Counted from the first letter of the stretch, positions 1,965 through 43,588 are shown. The stretch is 44,044 nucleotides of DNA from Nitrospirota bacterium (GCA_038067655.1 JBBTNS010000058.1:1-44044); one strand, 5' to 3'. The notes: generated from the sequence alone by a model not told the origin. Translations and numbers: made by a program.

Positions 1965-2056
1965 TGGCGGAGAGAGAGGGATTTGAACCCCCGGTGGAGT
2001 TACCCCCACATCTGCTTTCGAGGCAGACGCCTTCAACCGAACTCGGCCATCTCTCC
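1965..2056 (-). tRNA. tRNA-Ser (anticodon CGA)
   Basis: Reverse complement reads GGAGAGATGGCCGAG...TCTGC-CTCGAAA-GCAGA, a long variable arm, GGTTCAAATCC, CTCTCTCC-G-CCA. The acceptor stem pairs and CCA is encoded. Confidence 0.96.
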
Positions 2057-33368: not shown

Positions 33369-34561
33369 CGTGATTGGCTGCTCGCAGCGGACGCTCCGCC
33401 AGATAATTCGGAATAAATCGGAGAGATTTCTTGAAGTGACGAAACCACTTCGGGAAAGACCGAAAGCACGGTATCAATATCCTCGCGTGTTGTGTCTTTC
33501 CCCAAACTCATCACAATTGCTCCTTGCGCAATGTTGGCCGGATACCCTATCGCGGTGAGTGTCGGTGATATTTTAAGCGCGTCCGCACTGCAAGAGGAGC
33601 CTGCGGCCGCAATAATACCGCTTCGAGAAAGCGCGCGAATCAATGCCTCTCCATCTACATATTCCACGGCAAAACTTGCAATATGCGGCAAACGATATTG
33701 CCGGTCACCCGTCAGATGAATCCGATTGACCTTTTTAATCAACCCAGAAATAAGATGATCCCTTAAATTAGAAAGCCGTTTGTGTTCATGGGTTAGATTT
33801 TCTCTTGCCGCCTTTCCCGCAACGCCCATGCCAACGATGGCTGGCACATTTTCTGTTCCGGCTCGGCGGCCCCCTTCTTGAATCCCCCCGTCAATTAAGG
33901 GGAAAATGCGTGTGCCGCGCCGAAGATAAAGCGCCCCCACCCCTTTTGGGCCATAAAACTGCTGGGCCGAAAAACCCGCCAGATCAACCCCCAATGAATT
34001 AATATCAAATGGAATCACCCCAACCGTTGCCGCCGCATCGGTATGAAAGGGCACTCCTGAAGCATTCGCAATTTTCGCAATTTCTTGTATGGGTTGAATG
34101 GTCCCGATCTCATTATTCGCGTGGGCGATAGAAATCAATACCGTCTCTTTACAAATTGCGTTTTTAACATCGGCAGGATTGACGCGTCCCGTTTGATCAA
34201 CCGGCAGCCAGGTCACCTGATAGCCTTCTTGCTCCATGCGTTTGATCGGATGTGCAACGGAAAAATGTTCGATCACCGAGGTAATAATATGCCGCCCCCT
34301 TTTTTTATGGGAAGACAGGATTCCCTTGATGGCAAGATTATTTGCTTCAGAAGCTGAGGCGGTAAAAATGATTTCGCGCGGATCGGCACCAATGAGTTCG
34401 GCAATGGATTTTCGTGCCGTCTCGATAGCCGCTTTGGGCGCATCTCCGACCTCATGGCGGCTTTGCGGGTTGCCGAAAGATTCGTCCCAGAAGGGCATCA
34501 TCGCATCTTTGGCCGCTGTCAAAAGCGGTGTGGCGGCGATATGATCTAAATAGATGGGCAC
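33365..34561 (-). CDS. iscS: Cysteine desulfurase (IscS/NifS group I)
   Basis: YLDHIAATP, ANNEIGTIQ, RAGTENV and AGSSC motifs. The GTG start lies inside a MITE end. The PLP-lysine motif reads SAQQFYGPKG (see findings). Confidence 0.85.
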   Translation of the reverse strand: MPIYLDHIAATPLLTAAKDAMMPFWDESFGNPQSRHEVGDAPKAAIETARKSIAELIGADPREIIFTASASEANNLAIKGILSSHKKRGRHIITSVIEHFSVAHPIKRMEQEGYQVTWLPVDQTGRVNPADVKNAICKETVLISIAHANNEIGTIQPIQEIAKIANASGVPFHTDAAATVGVIPFDINSLGVDLAGFSAQQFYGPKGVGALYLRRGTRIFPLIDGGIQEGGRRAGTENVPAIVGMGVAGKAARENLTHEHKRLSNLRDHLISGLIKKVNRIHLTGDRQYRLPHIASFAVEYVDGEALIRALSRSGIIAAAGSSCSADALKISPTLTAIGYPANIAQGAIVMSLGKDTTREDIDTVLSVFPEVVSSLQEISPIYSELSGGASAASSQSR

Positions 34562-34697
34562 CTCTATAAACCTACTGCGCGGACAAACTGCTGTGTTGCA
34601 CGGTGCTCGGAATCCTCATGTACTAAACGTACACTACGGTTCCTGTGCGCCGTGCGCCTTGCATTTTGACCGCTCGTGACGGTTTTTAGAGGTGCCC
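34556..34697. mobile_element. 142-bp MITE with 16-bp terminal inverted repeats and a 4-bp AGAT target-site duplication
   Basis: GGGCACCTCTATAAAC ... GTTTTTAGAGGTGCCC; AGAT at 34552-34555 and 34698-34701; internal imperfect palindrome. Confidence 0.88.
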
Positions 34698-34706
34698 AGA
34701 TTTTTC

Positions 34707-35228
34707 TCATGCGAGAGCAGCGGAAGGGTTTTCTCTTTCTAAAACGCCGATATAGGGCAGATTCCGATATCGGTCTTTGTAATCTAATCCATATCCAACC
34801 ACAAACCGATCTGGTGCTGTGAAGCCAATATAATCAATATCTACCCCGACCACTCTGGCACTCGGTTTATCCAGCAGCGTGCAAAGCCGAAGCGATTTTG
34901 GATTTCTTGCCAATAAGGCCTTTTTTAAAAAAGAGCCGGTTGCGCCGGAGTCCACAATATCTTCTACGATGAGGACGTGCCGATCTGTAATATTCTCCGT
35001 AAGATCAGAAATCACTTTTTGTTTGGAGATGACAAGAAAGTCAACCTGTATTGAAAGGGAGACCGCGCGTGAAAGATCGGCAAAAAAAGCGTACGCGCCT
35101 CTTAATACGCCGACCATGAGCAATTCCTGATTGGCATAATCTTTTGAAATTTGCAAGCCCAGTTCAGCCACACGGCTTTTAATGGCGGCCTGTGTAAAAA
35201 TCACTTTTCCAAAAACACGATCTTCCAT
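34707..35228 (-). CDS. hpt: Hypoxanthine phosphoribosyltransferase
   Basis: GVLRGA..FFADL, VLIVEDIVDSG and FVVGYGLDY...RNLPYI motifs; loop II is shortened. Confidence 0.88.
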   Translation of the reverse strand: MEDRVFGKVIFTQAAIKSRVAELGLQISKDYANQELLMVGVLRGAYAFFADLSRAVSLSIQVDFLVISKQKVISDLTENITDRHVLIVEDIVDSGATGSFLKKALLARNPKSLRLCTLLDKPSARVVGVDIDYIGFTAPDRFVVGYGLDYKDRYRNLPYIGVLERENPSAALA

Positions 35229-35330
35229 TTATTTAATCCAGCGATGATTCAACAATCGGAGCCATGAACCCTGCCTCCTTCTTTTCATTATAGCTCATTT
35301 TGGGACAGCTTGAAGTGACTGAATGTTACT

Positions 35331-37163
35331 TCAAACCATGGTCTTATCATTCAAGCCCCGCAGTAGGTTATGAGAGGTGCCCTTTTGCATCTTATCTTCT
35401 GGTGCCAACGGAGAGGTTTCTTCAGCGGGAGAAAGGAAACCGGCCTCCTTAAATCGAATTTTTAACTTTTCATTGTTAGGATCTAGCTTCAGCGAATGTG
35501 TCCATGCCGCTTTTGACTGCTCCTTCTGATTTTCTTTTAAGTAAACCTCTCCCAAATGCTCCAAAATCACTGGATCGTCCGGCGCAAGCGTCACCGCCTT
35601 TTCAAGAAGGAGCAGCGCCTCTTTCATCTTGCCTTGCTTATAATAGGCCCAGCCGAGACTGTCCATCACATAACCATCGTTAGGCTTTATGGTCAACGCA
35701 CGGGTCACTAAAGAGACGGCTTCAGCCAGGAAAATACCGCGATCGGCATAAGTATAGCCCAGGTAATTCAGCGCCATCACATGCTGTTCATCGAGTGAGA
35801 TGGCGCGTTTCATTTCTGAAACCAGATCGTCAAATTGGTTTAATTTGTCATAAACAACCCCCAGATGAAAATGGAAATCGGGATTATTGGGGGCAATTGC
35901 GATTCCCTTCAAAAGAGAATCGCGTGCTTCGGAAAATCGTTCCAATTCATACAACACCAAGGCGTTGAAGAGATAGGCCTCCTCTTTTTTTGGATCCATC
36001 GCAACTGCACGCTCTCCTTCTGCCAACGCCTCTGGAATCTTTTTTAATCGATAGAAGTAAATTCTTCCCAACCGAAGATGAATCTCGTAAGAATCTTCAT
36101 CTCGCAGCGGACGCTCCGCTTTTTGAAGCAATTCCTGATACGTTTGGATGGCCGCTTCATAATTTTCAACCCCTTCATAAAGAGACCCGAGATATGATTT
36201 TACATTAAAAGAGGGCGACTCGACCGCCATCATTTGTTTGAGCGCATCTAATGCCTTTTGATATTCTTTTTGTTGTGTCCATAGCAGTGATATTTTCAAC
36301 AAAATATCGGCATTTTTAGGGTCTTCAGCGGACAGTCTATTAAGAACGCCCATCGCTTCACCAAAAGACTTCCGCTCGGATAAGATGTAAGATAGCCTCA
36401 ATCCGGCCTCTTCATGTTCCATATTGTTTTGTTTAAGGATATGCAAGTAGATTTTTTCCGCTTCATCGCGTTTCCCTAAAAGCTCATAGAGAGAAGCCGC
36501 CGAAAGATGCGCTTGTAAAAAGGGGGGATAAAGAGCCGAAGCCTTCTGATAATGTTCAATTCCGTTTTCATATTTATTTTGGCTGGAATAGAGTTTCCCC
36601 AAGTAGTAATGAGCTACATGAGAGGAAGACGCCTCAATCAATCCTTTTTCTACGGTGGCAATTGCATCGCTGACCTTCTGCTCCTTGGCTAAAAATTCAG
36701 CCAAATTTAAATAGCCGTCAATCTCCTTGGGAGACTGTGCAATAATTTTCTCGTATGTTGCGACCACCTTTTCAAGGGCATCGGAAGCCGCATAAAGATC
36801 GGCCAAGAGATTCAATATTTCCTTATCATTTTGCTTGATTGTATTAGCCTTTTCGGCAAAGTCGACCGCTTTTTTTAGATCGCCAACGCGTGCGGCACAG
36901 ACAGCAATCCGTGTCATCAAAAGCGGGGAAACTTCATGACGCTCTGCTTTCTGATAGGCTTTTAACGCCTTCTCAAACTGTCCCGAAGCCTCATACTGTA
37001 GCCCTAACATAACCGAGTAGTACGCCTCGGGAGAAGGAAACGGCATTGATTTTAAATGGGCTGTGGGAGCCGAAACCGAAGGATTTGCGCTAAGTGTTTC
37101 GGATGCGGAACAAACGATCGGGAACAAAATTGCAAAAATGATCAGAAAGAGACGATGTTTCAT
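35331..37163 (-). CDS. Exported tetratricopeptide repeat protein
   Basis: Signal peptide, multiple TPRs, ALNYLGYTYAD and DSLGWAYY...EHLGEVY motifs. Confidence 0.88.
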   Translation of the reverse strand: MKHRLFLIIFAILFPIVCSASETLSANPSVSAPTAHLKSMPFPSPEAYYSVMLGLQYEASGQFEKALKAYQKAERHEVSPLLMTRIAVCAARVGDLKKAVDFAEKANTIKQNDKEILNLLADLYAASDALEKVVATYEKIIAQSPKEIDGYLNLAEFLAKEQKVSDAIATVEKGLIEASSSHVAHYYLGKLYSSQNKYENGIEHYQKASALYPPFLQAHLSAASLYELLGKRDEAEKIYLHILKQNNMEHEEAGLRLSYILSERKSFGEAMGVLNRLSAEDPKNADILLKISLLWTQQKEYQKALDALKQMMAVESPSFNVKSYLGSLYEGVENYEAAIQTYQELLQKAERPLRDEDSYEIHLRLGRIYFYRLKKIPEALAEGERAVAMDPKKEEAYLFNALVLYELERFSEARDSLLKGIAIAPNNPDFHFHLGVVYDKLNQFDDLVSEMKRAISLDEQHVMALNYLGYTYADRGIFLAEAVSLVTRALTIKPNDGYVMDSLGWAYYKQGKMKEALLLLEKAVTLAPDDPVILEHLGEVYLKENQKEQSKAAWTHSLKLDPNNEKLKIRFKEAGFLSPAEETSPLAPEDKMQKGTSHNLLRGLNDKTMV

Positions 37164-37185
37164 GGAAACCTCTGCTGATAATGTA

Positions 37186-37211
37186 GTGCCCCTCTAAAAA
37201 CCGACTGCGCG
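37186..37211. mobile_element. Degenerate end of the same MITE family
   Basis: GTGCCCCTCTAAAAACCGACTGCGCG versus GGGCACCTCTATAAACCTACTGCGCG at 34556. Confidence 0.55.
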
Positions 37212-37287
37212 TTTTTTGAGAACCATGGTTTTATAGTGACACAGCACTTCAAACGGCCACGCGAAACATAACGCCGTACGCAACAGG

Positions 37288-37485
37288 TTACAATAACGGA
37301 TCACGGTCTGTCTTTCGATTTTCTTTAGGGGTTACATCAATTTCGTCCGGCTCTGACATGCCTTTTTTGAAGCCACGCAGGGCTTTGCCAAACCCGATTC
37401 CAATTTCAGGCAGTTTCCCAGCGCCAAACACCACCAATACAATGAGCAAGATCGTCAAAAGTTCCGGCAGCCCAATTCCAAACAT
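37288..37485 (-). CDS. tatA: Twin-arginine translocase TatA/E subunit
   Basis: [10 protein letters not shown]...[21 protein letters not shown]. Confidence 0.93.
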
Positions 37486-37532
37486 CGCTATTCCCCCTGT
37501 CTCTTGAGTATACGCCGTGCCATAAAAGAGAG

Positions 37533-37970
37533 TCAAACAAACCGGTCACGGCATTTCTTCAGCCTTTTGCAATTGTCCTCCTTAAACGGGCGATCTTGGG
37601 ATGGGACAATCGGATTGAGCATACAAGCCCGCAGGACTTCAAGGTGACTGATCGGCTTACCCCAAACGACCACCTGTTTATCTTCTGCATAGGGTGAAAG
37701 GGCCGCGTCAATATCTTTTAGAAGAATTCTCCCAGAGTGAAAATAATCACGATACATCTTGCTGGAAAGATATCCCTTGCCCTCCAGAAACCATTCGCCC
37801 AACCGCACCGCCTCATCAAAGTGGAGTCGTTCCAGACCATGCAGTGGATTGCGATAAACAAATGTTCGCATCGGAAAGTAAGGCGCGATGATCTCGCTGG
37901 CCAGGCAGATTACCCCCAAAAGGTGCATCTGTTCTGTTTCAGTTGTTGGCGTGTGTTCTGTTTTTCCCAT
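37533..37970 (-). pseudogene. dabA: N-terminal fragment of DabA/MpsB (DUF2309) inorganic carbon transporter subunit
   Basis: IAPYFPMRTFVYRNPLHGLE.L.F..A..GYL...YR.YF..GRI matches the DUF2309 N-terminus. Only 145 codons are present versus roughly 800-1100 aa for intact members, and there is no dabB in the window. Confidence 0.8.
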
Positions 37971-37993
37971 GAGTGCATTTTCAAATAGCCGAG

Positions 37994-38401
37994 CTAGGTC
38001 AGCACCCAGTGTTTATCGGGGGTAACAGCATCAAGCAATTCAAAGAATTTTTCAATAGAGGGAACAGACTTCCCCTGTTCGTATCTTCCATAGGTGTTGG
38101 GAGAGCGGCTCCCCAAACGAATCGCTGTCTCCGCGAGGGATAAGCCGGAAATCTGGCGTTGTCGCTGAAGCAATAGCGCAAAAAGTGGGGCAATGGGATC
38201 AGACCAGAGTTCAAGAATTTGATCGTCAATAGATTCAACAAAAACGTGAACCTCTTTTTGGTCAAGCAAACATTCAAAATAATCCTTGATCATATTCAGA
38301 GCGTCCTTTCTCGATTTCCCTTGCGTCATCGCATCAAAGAGCGGCACTTCAATCAGCCAGAATTTCCCGTCCTGCCACATTCTTCCTTGGAATCGAATCA
38401 T
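37994..38401 (-). CDS. hicB: HicB-family antitoxin with C-terminal XRE HTH
   Basis: WLIEVPLFDAMTQG.S..DAL.MIKD plus RQISGLSL...YGRYEQGKSVPS; ATGA overlap with hicA. Confidence 0.85.
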   Translation of the reverse strand: MIRFQGRMWQDGKFWLIEVPLFDAMTQGKSRKDALNMIKDYFECLLDQKEVHVFVESIDDQILELWSDPIAPLFALLLQRQRQISGLSLAETAIRLGSRSPNTYGRYEQGKSVPSIEKFFELLDAVTPDKHWVLT

Positions 38402-38577
38402 ATTTTCTCCTTTTCAATTTTGCGAAGAATGGCTTTCGCCAATTGCTCATTCACCTCGTTGTGCCGGGGAATACACTCCGTCTGGAACCCGTTTGTCCAA
38501 ATGTCGTGATTTCCACCGTGCCTTAAATACCACCAGCCTCGCCGAGTCATCGCCTTTTCGAGGTCTTTTCTTTTCAT
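38398..38577 (-). CDS. hicA: HicA-family toxin (59 aa, absent from the ORF track)
   Basis: Hand-translated MKRKDLEKAMTRRGWWYLRHGGNHDIWTNGFQTECIPRHNEVNEQLAKAILRKIEKEKI*; GxH and PRH motifs. Confidence 0.88.
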   Translation of the reverse strand: MKRKDLEKAMTRRGWWYLRHGGNHDIWTNGFQTECIPRHNEVNEQLAKAILRKIEKEKI

Positions 38578-38586
38578 CTCTAATTT

Positions 38587-38615
38587 ATTTTACACCAATA
38601 TGTGTTTAAGCGCAA
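38587..38615 (-). promoter_or_regulatory. Candidate hicAB sigma-70 promoter with operator palindrome
   Basis: TTGCGC-N17-TAAAAT on the minus strand, overlapping ACAC-N6-GTGT. Confidence 0.5.
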
Positions 38616-38640
38616 TTTTAGCAGAGGTGTCAACAACCAA
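38590..38640 (-). pseudogene. VapC/PIN toxin N-terminal remnant
   Basis: TTG-start MVVDTSAKIAL... begins 3 nt after the stop of the upstream antitoxin-like ORF and stops after 16 codons. Confidence 0.5.
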
Positions 38641-38643
38641 AGG

Positions 38644-38901
38644 TCATTCCCATAAGTCATTTTCATTTTTAAATCGAAGTTTGGCAGAGAGGGGTGCTTT
38701 GAGATCCAAACCTAACCATGCCCGATACTCCATTTGCGAGTCGGTTTTTTTCAGGCGGGCTGCCGATTCCTCAATGGCAAGACGGATGGCCTCCGATTTT
38801 TGAGTGAGATTCGATCGCTTCATGTAAAGTTTGAGGTCTTTTTCAAATTGAGGTGTGATATTGATATTAAGCTGTTTCATATATACAAAAGTATAGCCCA
38901 T
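38644..38901 (-). CDS. Ribbon-helix-helix antitoxin-like protein
   Basis: MKQLNINIT...KSEAIRLAIEE pattern; followed by the PIN remnant. The start may be the second Met. Confidence 0.65.
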   Translation of the reverse strand: MGYTFVYMKQLNINITPQFEKDLKLYMKRSNLTQKSEAIRLAIEESAARLKKTDSQMEYRAWLGLDLKAPLSAKLRFKNENDLWE

Positions 38902-38949
38902 GTACAGGCATGGAACAATACGGTGTATTCCAAAAGTCCTCCGTACGCA

Positions 38950-39288
38950 CTCCCCTCCCCAGTTGAGGAGGGGTTGGGGGTGGTCTGTTTCAATAGGCTA
39001 ACTTTTAACCACTGTTTTTTGAGAATTGCTCTTCGGTGTCATTCCGGAATGCCTCTGTCCGGTATCCAGCCTTTATGAAAATTCTGGATACCGGCCTTCG
39101 CCGGGATGACGTCGTTTGTTTTGTCGTCGCAGGACTTAACAGTAAAAGCCTTTCTTATTTATATAACAGAACTTATTTGTCATAACACTAGAGTAACTTA
39201 TATGGAGCCATGCCAAGAACAAGGCTCATTGCTTGTGACATAAATATATTCTAACAACCCCCCCCTCCCCCCCTTTACTAAGGGGGAA
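38950..39288. repeat. Cluster of REP-like palindromes
   Basis: CCCCTCC..GGAGGGG (38950-38983), GTCATTCCGG..CCGGTATCCAG/CTGGATACCGG..CCGGGATGAC (39038-39110) and CCCCCTT..AAGGGGG (39257-39288). Confidence 0.7.
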
Positions 39289-39375
39289 TTGCCATAGGGC
39301 TTCTATATCCATTCCGCGACCAACGGGAGCGGGGATAGACTGCGAAGCAGTCGTACTCGGAGTGGCCGTAGCCAC

Positions 39376-39417
39376 AAAAAAAGCCGACTCAAAACCTTTA
39401 TGGTTTCGAGTCGGCTT
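39376..39417 (-). terminator. Intrinsic terminator of leader copy 2
   Basis: AAGCCGACTCGAAACC/GGTTTTGAGTCGGCTT stem followed by a U-tract. Confidence 0.8.
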
Positions 39418-39421
39418 AAAA

Positions 39422-39467
39422 CCCAACCGATTCTGATTTCAGAATCCTTCAGGCGATTTTCCGATAT
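39422..39467 (-). ncRNA. Putative cis-regulatory leader RNA, copy 2
   Basis: 45/46 identical to 40991-41036 and followed by a terminator. Confidence 0.7.
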
Positions 39468-39472
39468 AGCTT

Positions 39473-39602
39473 GGGCACCCCTAAAACCGTCACGAGCGAC
39501 CCAAGTGCGAGGCGCACGGCTCAGCACAAACGGATAACTTGTTGATTTACAATCATAACCGTTTTCACTGAGCCTGTCGAAGTGCAGTTTTTAGAGGTGC
39601 CC
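39473..39602. mobile_element. 130-bp MITE variant with an internal REP-like segment and IHF consensus
   Basis: GGGCACCCCTAAAACCGTCACGAGCG ... GTTTTTAGAGGTGCCC; AATCAACAAGTTA on the minus strand at 39535-39547; no clear 4-bp duplication. Confidence 0.78.
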
Positions 39603-39603
39603 T

Positions 39604-39927
39604 TTATTGGTCTTGATCGTAATCGGGCCAGACCACATCAACATCCGAGATCATCATCACTCCCGCATAATCTTGGATCAAGTCTCTAACCTCCTCCGCG
39701 ATCCGTACTGCGGCATTCTCATCCACTAGTGTGATAATCATGGCGTTTGCATAAAGGTCGGACACCCCTCCCCCCCTTCGATATCCCCGGTGACCCCGCC
39801 CGGTGACGGACTCATGGACCGTGTAGCCGGATGCGCCTGCCTGATCGATAATCTTAAGGACTTGTTGCAGTTTCACCGCCTCGATGACGATCTCGACTTT
39901 CTTCATTCTTTTTGGATCGTAAGGCAT
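39604..39927 (-). CDS. sbtB: PII-like regulator SbtB
   Basis: MKKVEIVIE...GASGYTV...GRGHRG pattern; AAGGAGG RBS; directly after sbtA. Confidence 0.85.
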   Translation of the reverse strand: MPYDPKRMKKVEIVIEAVKLQQVLKIIDQAGASGYTVHESVTGRGHRGYRRGGGVSDLYANAMIITLVDENAAVRIAEEVRDLIQDYAGVMMISDVDVVWPDYDQDQ

Positions 39928-39940
39928 CGCTCCTCCTTGG

Positions 39941-40927
39941 TTAATGAATCCATTTTGCCAGAAAGAGATAGAGGGGTATCCCGATCGTGACATTGAACGG
40001 GAAAGTAATCCCGAGGGCAAGGGTCATCGAGTAGGAGGGATTCGCCTTCGGCAGGGCAACGTGCATGGCGGCGGGCACAGCGATATATGAGGCGCTTGCG
40101 CCAAGGATGGCAACGAGGAGTGTCCCCCCGATACTCATCCCCAGCAACTTGCCGGTCGCAAGGCCGATCGCCGCGCCAATCAGCGGCATCAGAATCCCAA
40201 AGCCGGTTAAGAAGAGGCCGACCTGACGGAAATCGGCAAAGCGGCGGGCGGCCTCGATCCCCATGTGAAGAAGGAAGAGGCAGAGTACTCCTTTAAATGG
40301 GTCGAAGAAGAAAGGGCCGACCGTCTCCGCCCCATGTTCACCGGTCACCGCCCCGATGATCAGGGCACCCACCAGGATGACGACGCTTCCATTCAATAGT
40401 GCCTCTCGGAGGACTTCTCCCGCCGGGGTACCACCTTCAGCCTTTCTTCCTGAAGGGTCAAAGAACGTCGCCAACAGCAGCCCAATGGCAATCGCAGGCG
40501 ATTCCATCACTGCCATCATCGCTATTGTGTAACCTTCAAATTCATATCCTTCTCGGGTCAGGAAAGCCGAAGCGGCTAGGAACGTGACCGCGCTGACCGA
40601 GCCGTAGTGCGCGGAGATCGCAGCCGCATCAACCACCGAGAGGCGACCCAGCCACCGCAACAGGGAAAAGGCGATCAACGGTAGAAAAAGGCCGAGGAAG
40701 CCGGCTGCCAGACAAGCCCAAATTACGCTTGCCGTCCACCCTTCGTGGGCCAACTCCATACCCCCTTTCAATCCAATCGAAGCCATCAAATAATAGGAGA
40801 TACCGCGCACCATCGCTTCAGGAAGATGAAGATCAGATTTCAGCACTGATGCAATCCATCCCAGCACAAAAAAGAGAATAATGGGAGAGAGAAGGTTATG
40901 CGTTGCCTGCTGAATAAACTCATTCAT
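39941..40927 (-). CDS. sbtA: Sodium-dependent bicarbonate transporter SbtA family
   Basis: KSDL.LP, IGLKGG, AHYGSVSAVTF, MESPAI, ASASYIAVPAA and LGITFPFN motifs. Confidence 0.93.
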   Translation of the reverse strand: MNEFIQQATHNLLSPIILFFVLGWIASVLKSDLHLPEAMVRGISYYLMASIGLKGGMELAHEGWTASVIWACLAAGFLGLFLPLIAFSLLRWLGRLSVVDAAAISAHYGSVSAVTFLAASAFLTREGYEFEGYTIAMMAVMESPAIAIGLLLATFFDPSGRKAEGGTPAGEVLREALLNGSVVILVGALIIGAVTGEHGAETVGPFFFDPFKGVLCLFLLHMGIEAARRFADFRQVGLFLTGFGILMPLIGAAIGLATGKLLGMSIGGTLLVAILGASASYIAVPAAMHVALPKANPSYSMTLALGITFPFNVTIGIPLYLFLAKWIH

Positions 40928-40945
40928 AGTCTGTCCTTCAACAAT

Positions 40946-40986
40946 AAAAAAGGCCGACTCAACAAAGGTTGCTGTTGAGTCGGCCT
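40946..40986 (-). terminator. Intrinsic terminator (attenuator) in the sbtA leader
   Basis: Perfect 14-bp stem AGGCCGACTCAACA/TGTTGAGTCGGCCT plus a U-tract, ending 18 nt before the sbtA ATG. Confidence 0.85.
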
Positions 40987-40990
40987 ATTG

Positions 40991-41036
40991 CCCAACCGAT
41001 TCTGATTTCAGAATCCTTCAGGCGATCTTCCGATAT
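40991..41036 (-). ncRNA. Putative cis-regulatory leader RNA, copy 1 (sbtAB)
   Basis: AUAUCGGAAGAUCGCCUGAAG-GAUUCUG-AAAU-CAGAAUC-GGUUGGG, located between a promoter and a terminator. Confidence 0.72.
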
Positions 41037-41044
41037 GGTTTCAG

Positions 41045-41087
41045 AATACTACGCTACCTATTCGCTCCAAGTAAAGCCAAAAATCAT
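41045..41087 (-). promoter_or_regulatory. Candidate sigma-70 promoter, copy 1
   Basis: TTTACT-N18-TAGTAT; the block is repeated at 41796-41838. Confidence 0.6.
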
Positions 41088-41108
41088 TGTGAATGGAGTG
41101 TCTCTTAA

Positions 41109-41142
41109 CCCATCCCCACCTAGCCTCCCCTTGAAGGGGAGG
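41109..41142. repeat. REP-like hairpin
   Basis: CCCATCCCCACCTAG-CCTCCCCTTGAAGGGGAGG; same type at 42432-42461 and 10026-10076. Confidence 0.6.
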
Positions 41143-41161
41143 AATAAGGATGGTGTGTTTC

Positions 41162-41719
41162 TTAATGGCTTTCGTGTTTCTCGTGCAGGATTTTTTCGGT
41201 CCAGGCCAGCAGGATGGAGGAGGCCAGAAAGGTCATGTGAATAATCACCTGCCACATCACACTACGATAGTCTCCATCTTTCCCCATGGATTCGATGTTG
41301 ATGAAGGTCTGTAACAGGTGGATACCCGAGACGCCTACCAGGGAACCGGACAGCTTGATCTTCATGGTGCCGGCGTCAATATGCTTCAGCCAGTCCGGGC
41401 GGTCGGGATGGCTATCTAAATCCAGCTTGGACACAAAAGTAGCATAACCGCCGATGGTCACCATCGTGAGAAGATTGGCGACCATCGTGATGTCCACCAA
41501 CGTTAATACCCCCAGCATGACCTCTGTCTCGGTCATCTGCCCCAAGTCCCAGGTCATGTGCCAAAGGTGCTGCAGAAATTTGAAGGCGTAAAGAGCACCC
41601 GCCAGAATCAGGCCGACGTAAAGCGGCGCCTGAAGCCAACGGCTCGCAAAAATAATGTGTTCAATCGCTTTCTCAGTCGCCTTGCGGCTATCAGTAAGGA
41701 AGGAGGTCTCTTTTTTCAT
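41162..41719 (-). CDS. UPF0114 / TIGR00645 (YqhA-like) membrane protein
   Basis: IFASRWLQAPLYVGL, LVDITMVANLL, GGYATFVSKL and KIKL...SGIHLL motifs. Confidence 0.88.
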   Translation of the reverse strand: MKKETSFLTDSRKATEKAIEHIIFASRWLQAPLYVGLILAGALYAFKFLQHLWHMTWDLGQMTETEVMLGVLTLVDITMVANLLTMVTIGGYATFVSKLDLDSHPDRPDWLKHIDAGTMKIKLSGSLVGVSGIHLLQTFINIESMGKDGDYRSVMWQVIIHMTFLASSILLAWTEKILHEKHESH

Positions 41720-41756
41720 TTTTCTTTATTGGAAAGGTTCTGACAAAGGACGGTTG

Positions 41757-41786
41757 GTAGGGGCAGGCCTATCTGCCTTCCCCTAC
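41757..41786. repeat. GTAG-type REP palindrome
   Basis: GTAGGGGCAGGC-CTATCT-GCCTTCCCCTAC. Confidence 0.7.
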
Positions 41787-41795
41787 GATAAATGA

Positions 41796-41838
41796 AATAC
41801 TACGCGATCTACTCGCTCCAAGTAAATCCAAAACTCAT
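41796..41838 (-). promoter_or_regulatory. Candidate sigma-70 promoter, copy 2
   Basis: TTTTGGATTTACTTGGAGCGAGTAGATCGCGTAGTATT, near-identical to copy 1. Confidence 0.6.
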
Positions 41839-42203
41839 CGGGAGAAATGATCCTCAAGGTTTTCGTTCAACGTAAAAATAATCATTCGTTCCCCGGTCTT
41901 CGTGCTGATATCAGTGTGAAGGCTAACCACTTTGAGGCCAGTGACCTTCTCAATGGCTTCTTTGATCAACGATTTGCCCTGCTCTAACAAATTGGAACGT
42001 ATTTTTTTAATCAGGTTGATTCCCTCCGAATTTTTGGCCAGCTGTTGCTCCGCCGGTGTCAGCACCCCCTTCAGCCGCACCAAAACCATATCCTCAATGA
42101 CGAATGCCTTTGTTTCTTGTGGGCCTCGGCCCATGTAGTCTTTTTCAAACTGAATTAAGGCATTGCTAATTTCCGCCTCGATCTGGCCTTTTGTCCTTTT
42201 CAT
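41835..42203 (-). CDS. DUF2294 (MpsC/YbcI family) protein
   Basis: TKGQIEAEIS...MGRGP, LKGVLTPAE and SLHTDISTKTGER motifs. Confidence 0.88.
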   Translation of the reverse strand: MKRTKGQIEAEISNALIQFEKDYMGRGPQETKAFVIEDMVLVRLKGVLTPAEQQLAKNSEGINLIKKIRSNLLEQGKSLIKEAIEKVTGLKVVSLHTDISTKTGERMIIFTLNENLEDHFSR

Positions 42204-42262
42204 TGGATTACCCTTTCAAAACAGGAATACCGCGTAATTTTGTCATGTTACATGATGCTGTT

Positions 42263-42300
42263 CCCGATCGGCAACCATATACAGAAATGGCGAACTACTT
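42263..42300 (-). ncRNA. Putative leader motif upstream of DUF2294, related to the sbtA leader
   Basis: GUAGUUCGCC...CCGAUCGGG versus GAAGAUCGCC...UCGGUUGGG, with an internal hairpin GCCAU/AUGGU. Confidence 0.45.
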
Positions 42301-42463
42301 TGTGCGAGACCTGACGACACTTAGCCGTCGCATTTGCTGTATAGCAGAAAATATTAGACAATCCAAAAGATTTGAACAGACGATACAAAGATATAAAAAT
42401 GCAATAATGCGGGCCTGAGGCTATTTTTCATCCCACCCACCCTCCCCGGCAAGGGGAGGGACT

Positions 42464-43588
42464 CTAATCGGCACGGTTGCCGAGGGTGAAAAAGAACGTG
42501 GCACCGGCGTCCACTGCCGCCTCGGCCCAGATTCGGCCACCGTGGCGCTCAATGACACGCTGAACAATAGCCAGACCGACGCCGGTCCCCTCGTACTCGC
42601 TACTACTGCCGTGCAGACGCTCGAACACCTGGAAGATCTTGGGGGCGTATTTCAAATCGAAGCCAATCCCGTTATCCTTCACGAAGAAAACCGGTTCGCC
42701 TTCGGAAGCGCTGTCCTCGCAACCCACCTCGATCACGGCCGATTCGGAATGACGCGTAAACTTCAGCGCGTTGTTGAGTAAATTCATGAATACTTGTTTC
42801 AACAAAGCAGGGTCGGCCTCGGCGACACCCAGATCGCTAATCCTGATCTCGATGTTTCGCCCTTCCTGCTCCGCGCGCAACTCTGAAAGCGTGTCACGAA
42901 TAAGGTCGGCCATGACCACCGGCTGCTTCAGAATGGACTGATTGGACAAGTGCGCGAAGGACAGCAAATCCCGGAGAAGTTGATCCATTTGCTTGGCACG
43001 GTTGGGCATCAGGTTCAAGTATCGCTGGGCTTCGGGTGGCAACTCGAGGGCATAGTCGGAAAGCAGAATGTCCGCAAAGCCGTCGATGGCGCGCAGCGGA
43101 GCGCGTAAGTCATGGGCGGAAAAAGAATTGAAGGTTTCCAGTTCCTTGTTGGCCGACTCCAACTCACCTGTGAGTCGGGTGCACTCCTCCATCTTCTGTC
43201 GCAGTTGGGTCTCCGCCTTGTTCTTGTACAGAGCTATCTCAATGTTGGAATGCAGCTCTCGTTCCGTAAAAGGCTTCACGATGTAGCCGTAAGGCTCGGT
43301 GACTCTGGCCCGCTGTAAGGTGGGCGGGTCTGTATAGGCGGTCAGATAAATGACCGGCAGATGCCATCTGCGGCGAATCTCGGCGGCGGCGTCAATACCA
43401 TCCATCTCGCCTTTTAACACAATATCCATCAGAATCAGTTGGGGGGAGGTCTGTTCGGTCAGGGTAATCGCCTCCTGCCCGGACGAAGCGATCCCTGCGA
43501 TTTCATAACCCAGGTTCAGGAGCCGAGCCTCCAGTTCCCGCGCAATAATGATCTCGTCATCCACAATTAGGATTCGTACGGCGGCCAT
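42464..43588 (-). CDS. Hybrid response regulator - histidine kinase (REC-HisKA-HATPase)
   Basis: ILIVDDE, LMDI..KP, AHDLRAPLR, NLLNNALKF, DNGIG and GTGVGL motifs. Confidence 0.92.
   Translation of the reverse strand: MAAVRILIVDDEIIIARELEARLLNLGYEIAGIASSGQEAITLTEQTSPQLILMDIVLKGEMDGIDAAAEIRRRWHLPVIYLTAYTDPPTLQRARVTEPYGYIVKPFTERELHSNIEIALYKNKAETQLRQKMEECTRLTGELESANKELETFNSFSAHDLRAPLRAIDGFADILLSDYALELPPEAQRYLNLMPNRAKQMDQLLRDLLSFAHLSNQSILKQPVVMADLIRDTLSELRAEQEGRNIEIRISDLGVAEADPALLKQVFMNLLNNALKFTRHSESAVIEVGCEDSASEGEPVFFVKDNGIGFDLKYAPKIFQVFERLHGSSSEYEGTGVGLAIVQRVIERHGGRIWAEAAVDAGATFFFTLGNRAD

Follow-up and report, generated by a model that had tools for sequence, protein, structure and literature searches.

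In the hut operon of Bacillus subtilis, a terminator lies between the gene for HutP, a small (~15 kDa) protein, and the structural genes, and we describe here a comparable arrangement at genes for inorganic-carbon uptake. The DAB/MpsAB pumps have been recognized only recently, a sodium cycle is used by some bicarbonate transporters, and the DUF2294/MpsC family comprises thousands of proteins; to our knowledge, it is largely unknown how non-photosynthetic autotrophs sense inorganic carbon and switch its uptake. The locus lies in a 44,044-nt stretch of DNA from a Nitrospirota bacterium (the window), in which the relevant genes and the element under study are all on the minus strand. The element is a leader RNA, consisting of a hairpin with an internal loop followed by an intrinsic terminator, and it is present in two copies, one of them ahead of the bicarbonate transporter gene sbtA; the gene mpsC lies upstream. 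This leader belongs to a conserved family of 5′ leader RNAs ahead of inorganic-carbon acquisition and fixation genes in the Nitrospirota, a new family within the terminator-based leader RNAs. It is best read as an attenuator that is off by default and needs a trans-acting factor, for which the MpsC protein is our tentative first choice. In the literature searched, with supplements and subscription journals outside its coverage, we found no regulatory RNA for DAB, SbtA or related genes, no function for DUF2294, and no regulator assigned to DAB/MpsAB; the B. subtilis MpsAB preprint makes no mention of ybcI, riboswitch, terminator, DUF2294, mpsC or leader.

The two leader copies and the genes beside them are laid out as follows (R1 is a covariance model described below; MFE, minimum free energy):

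41835..42203, minus strand: mpsC (DUF2294/PF10057), 122 aa, Pfam E 3e-42; candidate trans-acting partner of the leader
41045..41092, minus strand: promoter-region copy A, with TTTACT at 41075-41070, an 18-nt spacer and TAGTAT at 41051-41046 (hexamers read by eye)
41041-40990, minus strand: leader copy 1, full extent
40990..41031, minus strand: leader copy 1, putative sensor hairpin (MFE fold; model R1, 99 bits; covariation)
41031-41025, minus strand: tail GGAAGAU of copy 1
41023-41018 with 40995-40990, minus strand: helix P1 of copy 1
41015-41009 with 41004-40998, minus strand: helix P2 of copy 1
40946..40986, minus strand: intrinsic terminator of copy 1, 15-bp stem and U-run (terminator scan)
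39941..40927, minus strand: sbtA, sodium-dependent bicarbonate transporter family (Pfam Sbt_1, E 4.8e-116)
39604..39927, minus strand: sbtB-like P-II family gene, 3′ of sbtA (Pfam P-II, E 1.4e-19)
39472-39421, minus strand: leader copy 2, full extent
39421..39462, minus strand: leader copy 2, putative sensor hairpin with tail GGAAAAU (model R1, 92.8 bits; MFE fold)
39374..39417, minus strand: intrinsic terminator of copy 2, 16-bp stem and U-run (terminator scan)

The original prediction, made from the window alone, started from a 46-nt sequence that occurs twice with one mismatch (39422-39467 and 40991-41036), and this sequence is indeed the core of a 72-nt direct repeat, D1 (39401-39472 and 40970-41041, 86% identity); by a rough uniform-base estimate, the chance expectation for such a 46-nt pair in 44 kb is ~3e-17. 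Each copy is followed, as had been noted, by a strong intrinsic terminator, and both were called by the scan: on the minus strand, the copy 1 site runs from 40986 to 40951, with 15 pairs and then TTTTTATTGT, and the copy 2 site from 39417 to 39381, with 16 pairs and then TTTTTGTGGC. The two terminators differ in one stem pair, G-C versus A-U, and pairing is kept, as described. The helix GCCUGA/UUGGGY around a GAUUCUG/CAGAAUC hairpin, also part of that description, is the MFE fold of both copies. Copy 1 had been placed between a promoter and sbtA; the gene does start (40927) 19 nt past the copy 1 U-run, but the TTTACT/TAGTAT promoter (41075-41046) is a reading by eye that a consensus promoter scan did not call.

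When 40 related genomes were searched with the leader by BLAST, homologs turned up in several families belonging to the same order, and nine leader sequences found in this way were used to build the covariance model R1. Strong R1 matches are present in 17 of 37 genomes of the order (E 3.4e-11 or lower) and in four of 151 genomes of a phylum sample (G000, G147, G058 and G140; E 7.7e-15 or lower). A degenerate pattern was then scanned against one genome per prokaryote species, and also against metagenome contigs. The genome scan gave 16 loci, of which 13 are R1-positive (54.9 bits or more), all 13 with Nitrospirota, Nitrospiria or Candidatus Troglogloeales titles; the metagenome scan gave 40 loci, 34 of them R1-positive. 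The other three genome loci, titled Pirellulales, Prochlorococcus and Pseudomonadota, have no R1 match, six metagenome loci likewise lack one, and neither group was accepted. Nor were weak matches to R1 or to a second model, R2, in G017, G023, G088, G182 and G183 taken as members, which for those examined rests on sequence or context, and weak R2 matches in family f12 proved to be terminators ahead of an unrelated gene.

Among 53 distinct sequences, in an alignment that was fitted to the model and leans toward it, 94.1% of cells are in standard pairs, and both partners have changed in 17 of 25 pairs. Of 500 shuffles, none reaches any of five covariation measures for this set, and sliding the pair partners cuts pairing to 19-51%. 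The GGAAGAT, RAR, GT and TARGCCRRCTC columns of that alignment are conserved by construction of the search pattern; the genome set found by BLAST and covariance search has the same conservation in these columns. Because of the model bias and the pattern-fixed columns, we repeated the analysis with MAFFT and RNAalifold on 21 genome-derived sequences, which recovered P1, P2 and the terminator as before; 16 of 23 pairs are compensated.

The leader has no counterpart in Rfam 15 (4227 families, including the DUF1646/Na+, nhaA-I/Li+ and crcB/fluoride motifs), in line with the original prediction, which had assigned it to no named family: at the gathering threshold, the only match in the whole window is a tRNA; at E 10 or lower, the region 38900-42500 has five noise matches (15.9-18.4 bits), none on the motif hairpin; and at E 1 or lower, 15 member loci have only a tRNA and one snoRNA noise match. 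We also considered whether the repeat is a recent local duplication without wider meaning, as the near identity of the window copies would suggest, and as might be expected at a locus so clearly reshuffled by recombination (a promoter repeat, D2, and a lost dabB). This explanation is refuted by homologs that carry compensatory changes and extend to at least 17 genomes of the order, to further classes and to 34 metagenome contigs; we assign it almost no weight, and the same homologs bear out the predicted conserved, structured terminator leader ahead of inorganic-carbon genes.

The element begins with a few variable bases and the purine-rich tail GGAAGAU, followed by P1, a 6-bp helix (GCCYGA/UYRGGC), a 2 × 2 purine internal loop with AG opposite GG (AG/GG in copy 1, and GG opposite AG in some members), and P2, of 6-8 bp, closed by a loop that is free in length and sequence and carries a 30-nt insertion in one genome. 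P1 may be extended by A-U, U-A/G and A/G-U, which are compatible in 53, 45 and 43 of the 53 sequences, respectively, and show no covariation; the extended P1 stops one base 5′ of the terminator, so that the P1 helix and the terminator abut. The terminator base UAUAAGCC...GGCUUUUUU is conserved: AAGCC...GGCUU and the U-run are invariant or nearly so, and the upper stem covaries. Overall, in R1-type sequences, the unpaired nucleotides are conserved and the stems covary.

There is substantial variation beyond these R1-type sequences. Model R2 detects two diverged subtypes in family f22, and the dabB leader of Nitrospiraceae and family f12 is a related element with a 3-bp outer helix (GUA/UAC), a 2 × 2 GG/AG loop and a 9-bp inner helix, abutting a terminator that starts UACAAGCC. 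A third model, R3, built on this leader, matches 22 of the 151 phylum-sample genomes, with 14 of 18 in Nitrospiraceae f9 and six of seven in f12. R2 and R3 match identical f22 elements, and R3 finds R1-type members in the right places at low scores (19.2 and 17.8 bits for the window copies, 25.2 and 21.7 bits at L049); judged by these matches, the R1, f22 and Nitrospira-type elements are probably homologous. The tail sequence differs among the subtypes (GGAAG, GCRG, GGYAG and GUAGG).

Several loci carry more than one leader or an altered one. A tandem of two subtypes, both with a terminator of their own, precedes the dabB operon of G147 (L051:1501-1590 and 1596-1702) and a monomeric isocitrate dehydrogenase operon in G074 (L144:1501-1608 and 1390-1490). 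In G015, the leader ahead of an Iso_dh-type dehydrogenase has its P2 3′ strand and GGUU junction expanded to 5.1 tandem 13-nt units (L039:336-401), which may reflect slippage, faulty assembly or multiplication of a binding site. In G012, the promoter, leader and terminator are duplicated almost exactly, 1.1 kb apart (L024:1501-1589 and 2624-2712), and the copies flank a 129-aa open reading frame (ORF) of no known family and small opposite-strand ORFs; the picture suggests an insertion that entered the leader region and duplicated its target.

For 54 distinct motif sequences, neighbours were typed by BLASTP against Pfam-identified proteins. The first typed same-strand downstream gene, assessable in 39 cases, codes for DabB in 26, SbtA in three, SbtB in one, monomeric isocitrate dehydrogenase in three, beta-carbonic anhydrase in one and MpsC in two; the three unclassified cases are window copy 2, the G012 copy beside the insertion, and one short contig. 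Outside this tally, leaders precede a SulP transporter gene (after the second motif of L115), the Iso_dh-type dehydrogenase of G015, a second beta-carbonic anhydrase type followed by mpsC in family f22, and SulP, DabA and Mrp-like antiporter genes in family f12. The expectation that sulP and carbonic anhydrase genes also carry the leader is therefore borne out, at L115, in f12 and f22, and within the tally. All of these downstream genes concern inorganic-carbon uptake, interconversion or fixation, or the sodium cycle. A 13-kb cluster of G167 (L171; G167:C1:1209500-1222500) has three Nitrospira-type leaders, preceding, respectively, a SulP transporter gene; genes for DabA and a DegP-like protease; and MnhE/MnhB/Mrp-like antiporter genes, with mpsC divergent between them.

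The distance from the terminator end to the downstream gene is 1-156 nt at loci other than the window's sbtA, and 19-25 nt in several. RNA-seq contigs from four runs of one study are informative for L033, from a large-genome relative: high-depth contigs start at 1509-1511 in three runs and at 1485 in one, at the 5′ end of the motif (1501-1598), and cross the terminator into dabB, to 3098 and past the locus end. Their mean word depth is 39-67, and contigs upstream are at ~4-9, that is, 5-10 fold lower; contigs of this kind give neither levels along the transcript nor its true ends. In L033, then, the apparent start of transcription is beside the motif, and there are molecules that join the leader to dabB. 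The layout is that of an attenuator, with a G+C-rich hairpin and U-run between the apparent transcription start and the start codon.

The gene most closely tied to the leader is mpsC. It is the nearest typed same-strand gene, ending within 400 nt upstream of the motif, in 32 of 49 assessable cases, and it lies just 5′ of the motif in all seven loci with other cargo (L034, L037, L080, L113, L089, L105 and L115), a count read from the per-locus rows and covering loci whose downstream gene is neither DabB nor MpsC, the window and G015 excluded. In genus g7, which has large genomes, mpsC is 4-8 kb upstream of the motif. Three layouts recur: mpsC, then promoter, leader and cargo; leader, mpsC, mpsC, leader and dabB (G058 and G140); and, in Nitrospiraceae, mpsC divergent from the related dabB leader, or, in Nitrospiraceae and f12, from dabB or sbtA. 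In the contexts examined, no other gene shows a consistent link to the leader.

Co-occurrence with DUF2294, as anticipated in the original prediction, is also seen between genomes, in counts that are not independent events. MpsC is present in 16 of the 17 genomes of the order in which the motif was found (one of these genes is cut at a contig end) and was not found in the other, a 610-contig assembly; of the 20 genomes without a motif match, MpsC was found in two and not in 18, and in one of these two the motif region has been replaced. In the phylum sample, counting R2 and R3 matches judged credible by sequence and context, 28 genomes have both RNA and MpsC, two have the RNA only (G109, 71% complete, and G135, complete), two have MpsC only, one of them with an in-frame TGA in mpsC, and 119 have neither. 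Median MpsC identity to the window protein is 77% in genomes with R1-type leaders, 59% with f22 and 50% with Nitrospira-type leaders, and by these comparisons RNA subtype drift parallels MpsC divergence.

A mutually exclusive antiterminator had been proposed for both window copies, with UCGGUU of the leader pairing with RGCCGA in the terminator 5′ arm. The complementarity is there, as 90.9% of cells allow the 3′ strand of P2/P1 (GRAUCGGUY) to pair with the terminator 5′ arm, but none of the five covariation measures for this pairing exceeds its shuffle mean. The antiterminator helix alone has a median energy of -5.4 kcal/mol; the corresponding medians are ~-15.6 kcal/mol for P1-P2 (approximate because 6 of 53 evaluations were lost to a too-short projected loop) and -16.9 kcal/mol for the terminator, and the best fold forced to hold the antiterminator has a median of -17.8 kcal/mol, against -37.3 kcal/mol for the unconstrained MFE. 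In f22 subtype B, ahead of isocitrate dehydrogenase, the antiterminator has two central mismatches, and P1, P2 and the terminator are kept. As a conserved feature, this pairing was therefore set aside: it is weak, lacks covariation and is broken in one subtype. We found no other conserved alternative pairing; by eye, the 5′ tail has only GG/CC or AAG/CUU complementarity to the terminator arms and U-run, and NAG triplet repeats are at about the chance number, so that neither these nor CsrA-type GGA sites are claimed as features of the leader. The leader thus has the covarying structure expected of an aptamer and no riboswitch-type platform helix exclusive with the terminator, and because no competing antiterminator helix is conserved, we take hairpin plus terminator, and hence the off state, as the default, both at equilibrium and co-transcriptionally.

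We propose that the leader is transcribed from the promoter adjoining the motif and that the hairpin and terminator would form by default, leaving the downstream genes off. Since termination is the default and no antiterminator is conserved, we infer that downstream transcription needs a trans-acting input that stops terminator completion. When inorganic carbon is scarce, MpsC would bind the hairpin and junction and keep the terminator 5′ arm from nucleating, giving read-through; MpsC would then be a ligand-gated RNA-binding antiterminator acting in the manner of HutP or BglG/LicT. Such MpsC-assisted antitermination is the single most likely mechanism in our judgment, held tentatively and at less than an even chance. 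We favour MpsC because the RNA has no switch helix of its own, because the 'conserved' nucleotides drift together with MpsC divergence, a pattern to be expected of protein sites more than of ligand pockets, because mpsC and leader stay together as a unit when the cargo is exchanged, and because the three gene layouts match those of known regulator-target pairs.

What is known of MpsC sets limits to this proposal. The window protein matches PF10057 only among Pfam families (143.6 bits, cut-off 23; profile positions 1-110 of 111), and its AlphaFold2 model (mean pLDDT 96.7, pTM 0.87) has the topology helix, two strands, two helices, two strands. Sequence and profile searches against the PDB found nothing below E 0.1 (best L23, E 0.77, and nitrophorin, E 0.11), an ESM Atlas search returned DUF2294 clusters only, with no structure model for either of two queries, and NCBIfam has no model naming MpsC, SbtA, or the helix-turn-helix protein and 85-aa ORF of the window described below. 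With Foldseek, the top rows include ribosome-entry chains (TMq ~0.35 over ~85 columns); the TRAPP Bet3 subunit (TMq 0.51 over 108 columns) is among them too, as is B. subtilis YslB (TMq 0.47). VIA-align gives RbfA at Z 6.0, TRAPP/Bet3 at 5.9 and the PoxR sensor domain at 4.7, all in the range of common arrangements. Judged from the model, the fold neither supports nor excludes RNA binding, and is compatible with a small ligand-binding alpha/beta domain.

Several of these observations, and others, weigh against MpsC as the antiterminator. The protein has no recognizable RNA-binding domain, and no Foldseek match in the PDB reaches E 0.001; the best VIA-align Z, 7.0, is typical of models without a real match, and the weak resemblances are split between ribosome-entry chains, RbfA and S6 on the one hand and the Bet3/YslB/PoxR-sensor fold (TMq 0.47-0.51) on the other. 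Its near-invariant residues include the acidic E9, E52, D98 and E105 beside K66 and R69, and its calculated isoelectric point is only 8.9. Co-occurrence with the leader is inseparable from co-occurrence with the whole carbon-gene cluster, and in some lineages the leader precedes mpsC itself, which fits an ordinary regulated structural gene as well. G135 has a Nitrospira-type element (L170:3721-3808, 35.6 bits) and no MpsC at E 1 or lower; in this single-contig, 99% complete genome, the element is directly ahead of a DegP-like protease gene, and since the same protease follows dabA in G167, it looks like a relic of the loss of dabA and mpsC. RNA contigs, moreover, cannot reveal termination efficiency or the fraction of read-through.

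Published work on the relatives of these genes offers some orientation. According to a Staphylococcus aureus study, deletion of mpsC leaves growth unaffected, MpsAB does not require mpsC for its function, and mpsA mRNA is 1.7-2.5 fold lower at 5% CO2 (PMC6689103); by analogy, an accessory or regulatory role for MpsC would be expected to look like this. In B. subtilis without cyclic di-AMP (c-di-AMP), another report describes the ndhF-ybcC operon (dabBA homologs) as seven-fold up, and suppressor mutations as hitting both ndhF and ybcC (PMC7857571). This possible link of c-di-AMP to DAB expression is a lead for ligand candidates.

Three other accounts of the leader have to be set against MpsC-assisted antitermination. 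In one, the leader is a riboswitch: a small ligand is bound directly by the P1/internal loop/P2 hairpin, tail and junction, and its binding alters the abutting terminator without a protein, the candidates being bicarbonate together with a metal ion, or a carbon-status metabolite or second messenger. The combination of covarying stems with conserved unpaired nucleotides fits this, as does the occurrence of one motif, often in tandem within a locus, ahead of many non-homologous genes that share one physiological theme; lacking an Rfam match, it would be a new class, and G135 retains the element without mpsC. The architecture is, however, very simple for a riboswitch, a single hairpin with a 2 × 2 loop and no conserved mutually exclusive expression-platform helix; the drift of the tail among subtypes of one phylum is unusual for the pocket of a universal ligand, and the distribution in the scans made is limited to Nitrospirota. 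We regard a riboswitch as unlikely on balance while giving it serious consideration, and the fuller claim, that the leader itself is the sensor and the first natural riboswitch for inorganic carbon status (bicarbonate/CO2, for example via bound metal ions, or a messenger), as if anything a little less probable; MpsC as the founder of a new family of ligand-gated RNA-binding antiterminators, itself tentative, is rated somewhat above the RNA as sensor.

The attenuator might also be read by another protein, a trans-acting RNA or an RNA polymerase factor, with MpsC a co-regulated accessory. The same structural and regulon evidence would serve this account, which has no difficulty with an MpsC that lacks a recognizable nucleic-acid-binding fold or with mpsC genes downstream of the leader in several lineages; it leaves aside the adjacency of mpsC when the cargo changes, and none of the other genes in the contexts examined accompanies the leader consistently; we consider it improbable. 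Slightly more improbable still is an element that senses nothing, either a constitutive leaky terminator or a ~90-nt small RNA gene whose read-through sets a fixed low level of expression. Its own promoter and strong terminator, its size and its two-hairpin shape are those of a small RNA, and the RNA contigs leave room for abundant short transcripts. Yet the 19-25 nt between terminator and start codon at several loci leave no space for a second promoter, and read-through must be substantial in L033 because the dabB contig that starts at the motif is 5-10 fold deeper than its upstream neighbours; the hairpin and internal loop are also conserved, and covary, beyond what a terminator needs. Antitermination assisted by MpsC thus stays our first choice among these.

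The remaining features of the window bear on how its present arrangement arose:

43588-42464, minus strand: hybrid response-regulator/histidine-kinase gene, 5′ of mpsC
41796..41843, minus strand: promoter-region copy B, ahead of UPF0114 (direct repeat D2, 85% identity to 41045-41092)
41162..41719, minus strand: UPF0114/TIGR00645 membrane-protein gene (Pfam E 2.1e-35; NCBIfam TIGR00645 E 5.3e-62)
39226..39242, minus strand: dabB start relic, 17 nt (blastn, 94% over 17 nt, E 0.033, against the dabB start-codon region of G010)
37994-38901, minus strand: helix-turn-helix gene (HTH_31, E 1.9e-7) and 85-aa ORF without family match
37533..37970, minus strand: truncated dabA, a 145-aa ORF with the N-terminal part only (Pfam DabA profile positions 4-71 of 747)

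Leader copy 2 is not ahead of an intact gene; it is 3′ of sbtB and 5′ of a decayed dabBA. By tblastn, residues 21-126 of the 980-aa DabA of G012 align to 37614-37931 (57.5% identity); no other part of DabA, and no part of DabB, has a match in 34000-39500, and there is no further DabA match elsewhere in the window's genome, which is 55% complete. The ~1.4 kb between the copy 2 terminator and the dabA remnant holds the 85-aa ORF and the helix-turn-helix gene, which fill the position expected for dabB, and the next minus-strand gene after the truncated dabA is a TPR gene. G010 has the order mpsC, promoter, leader, dabB, with the same promoter-region sequence after mpsC and before the motif, and this order is the ancestral one. 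Relative to G010, the window has UPF0114 inserted with a promoter duplication, an sbtAB with its own leader copy, and a decayed dabBA. Copy B would then be the ancestral promoter following mpsC, now presumably driving UPF0114; copy 1 is predicted to gate sbtAB; and copy 2 is the leftover leader of the decayed or deleted dabBA operon.

A related replacement is seen in G001, of the same genus (L077; G001:C5:1-6000), where mpsC is intact and the promoter, leader and dab genes are replaced, right after its stop codon, by a 160-aa and a 436-aa ORF, neither identified; a short match to the window sequence 3′ of copy 2 is kept. The sister genomes G001-G003 (69-86% complete) were searched for DabA and SbtA, as a check on whether mpsC outlasts dab; one DabA match there is cut by a contig end.

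Other observations in the window are recorded here in their own right. The UPF0114 leader (~41795-41745, minus strand) has a G+C-rich hairpin that, by eye, opens like the 5′ part of the motif. A CCTCCCC-N4-GGGGAGG hairpin is present in two copies (41124-41142 and 42441-42459), each within a 28-nt repeat, D7/I4, and 3′ of the UPF0114 and histidine-kinase genes on the minus strand; they could be terminators that lack a U-run, or else copies of a short repeat. Between copy 2 and the dabB relic, 39258-39275 is a non-coding plus-strand C-run with one T (G-rich on the minus strand). The sole Rfam gathering-score match in the window is a tRNA-Ser (anticodon cga) at 1965-2056, minus strand.

Should either the RNA or MpsC sense inorganic carbon, it would be a first of its kind, and the sensor would control uptake (DAB, SbtA and SulP), interconversion (carbonic anhydrase) and fixation (isocitrate dehydrogenase, in the reductive tricarboxylic acid cycle). 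By record names, the lineages with the leader include Candidatus Manganitrophus and Leptospirillum, and, if family f9 is Nitrospira, nitrite oxidisers. The leader is a concrete control element and gives DUF2294/MpsC its first specific functional hypothesis. Either outcome, a carbon-status riboswitch or an RNA-binding regulator family, would be new and potentially a source of a CO2-responsive genetic part.

Several known systems resemble this one in part. The leader shares with the Li+ (nhaA-I), Na+ (DUF1646) and fluoride (crcB) riboswitches a short leader and terminator before transporter genes and conserved internal-loop nucleotides, and its own functional theme includes Na+-coupled bicarbonate transport; unlike them, it has no P1 that competes with the terminator, and cmscan gives no match. 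It is reminiscent of PyrR attenuation in its purine-rich internal-loop hairpin 5′ of a terminator and in having repeated copies between operon genes; PyrR, however, promotes termination, by way of an anti-antiterminator set against a stronger antiterminator, whereas here no antiterminator is conserved and termination is the default. The cyanobacterial LysR-type regulators CcmR/NdhR and CmpR do the job proposed here, turning on carbon uptake when inorganic carbon is scarce, and the divergence of mpsC from dabB in Nitrospiraceae is like that of a LysR gene and its target; those proteins bind DNA at promoters, whereas this element is transcribed, RNA-structured with covariation, and ended by a terminator. 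As with HutP, a small protein is encoded at the head of the operon or just before it, a terminator lies in between, and the proposed antitermination would be ligand-gated and do without a classical alternative hairpin; in place of the two sets of NAG triplets of the HutP system, the leader has a covarying hairpin interrupted by an internal loop, MpsC is a proposed rather than an established RNA binder, and it has no detectable relation to HutP in PDB sequence, Foldseek and VIA-align searches. MpsC also lacks the CAT and PRD domains of BglG/LicT/SacY, and P1-P2 and the terminator abut and can coexist, whereas a ribonucleic antiterminator (RAT) hairpin overlaps its terminator and the two are mutually exclusive. 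Nevertheless, the leader-terminator-regulator-leader-terminator-transporter layout of G058 and G140 mirrors bglG-bglF, and, as with BglG/LicT, the proposed protein would block a terminator whose 5′ arm adjoins the binding hairpin.

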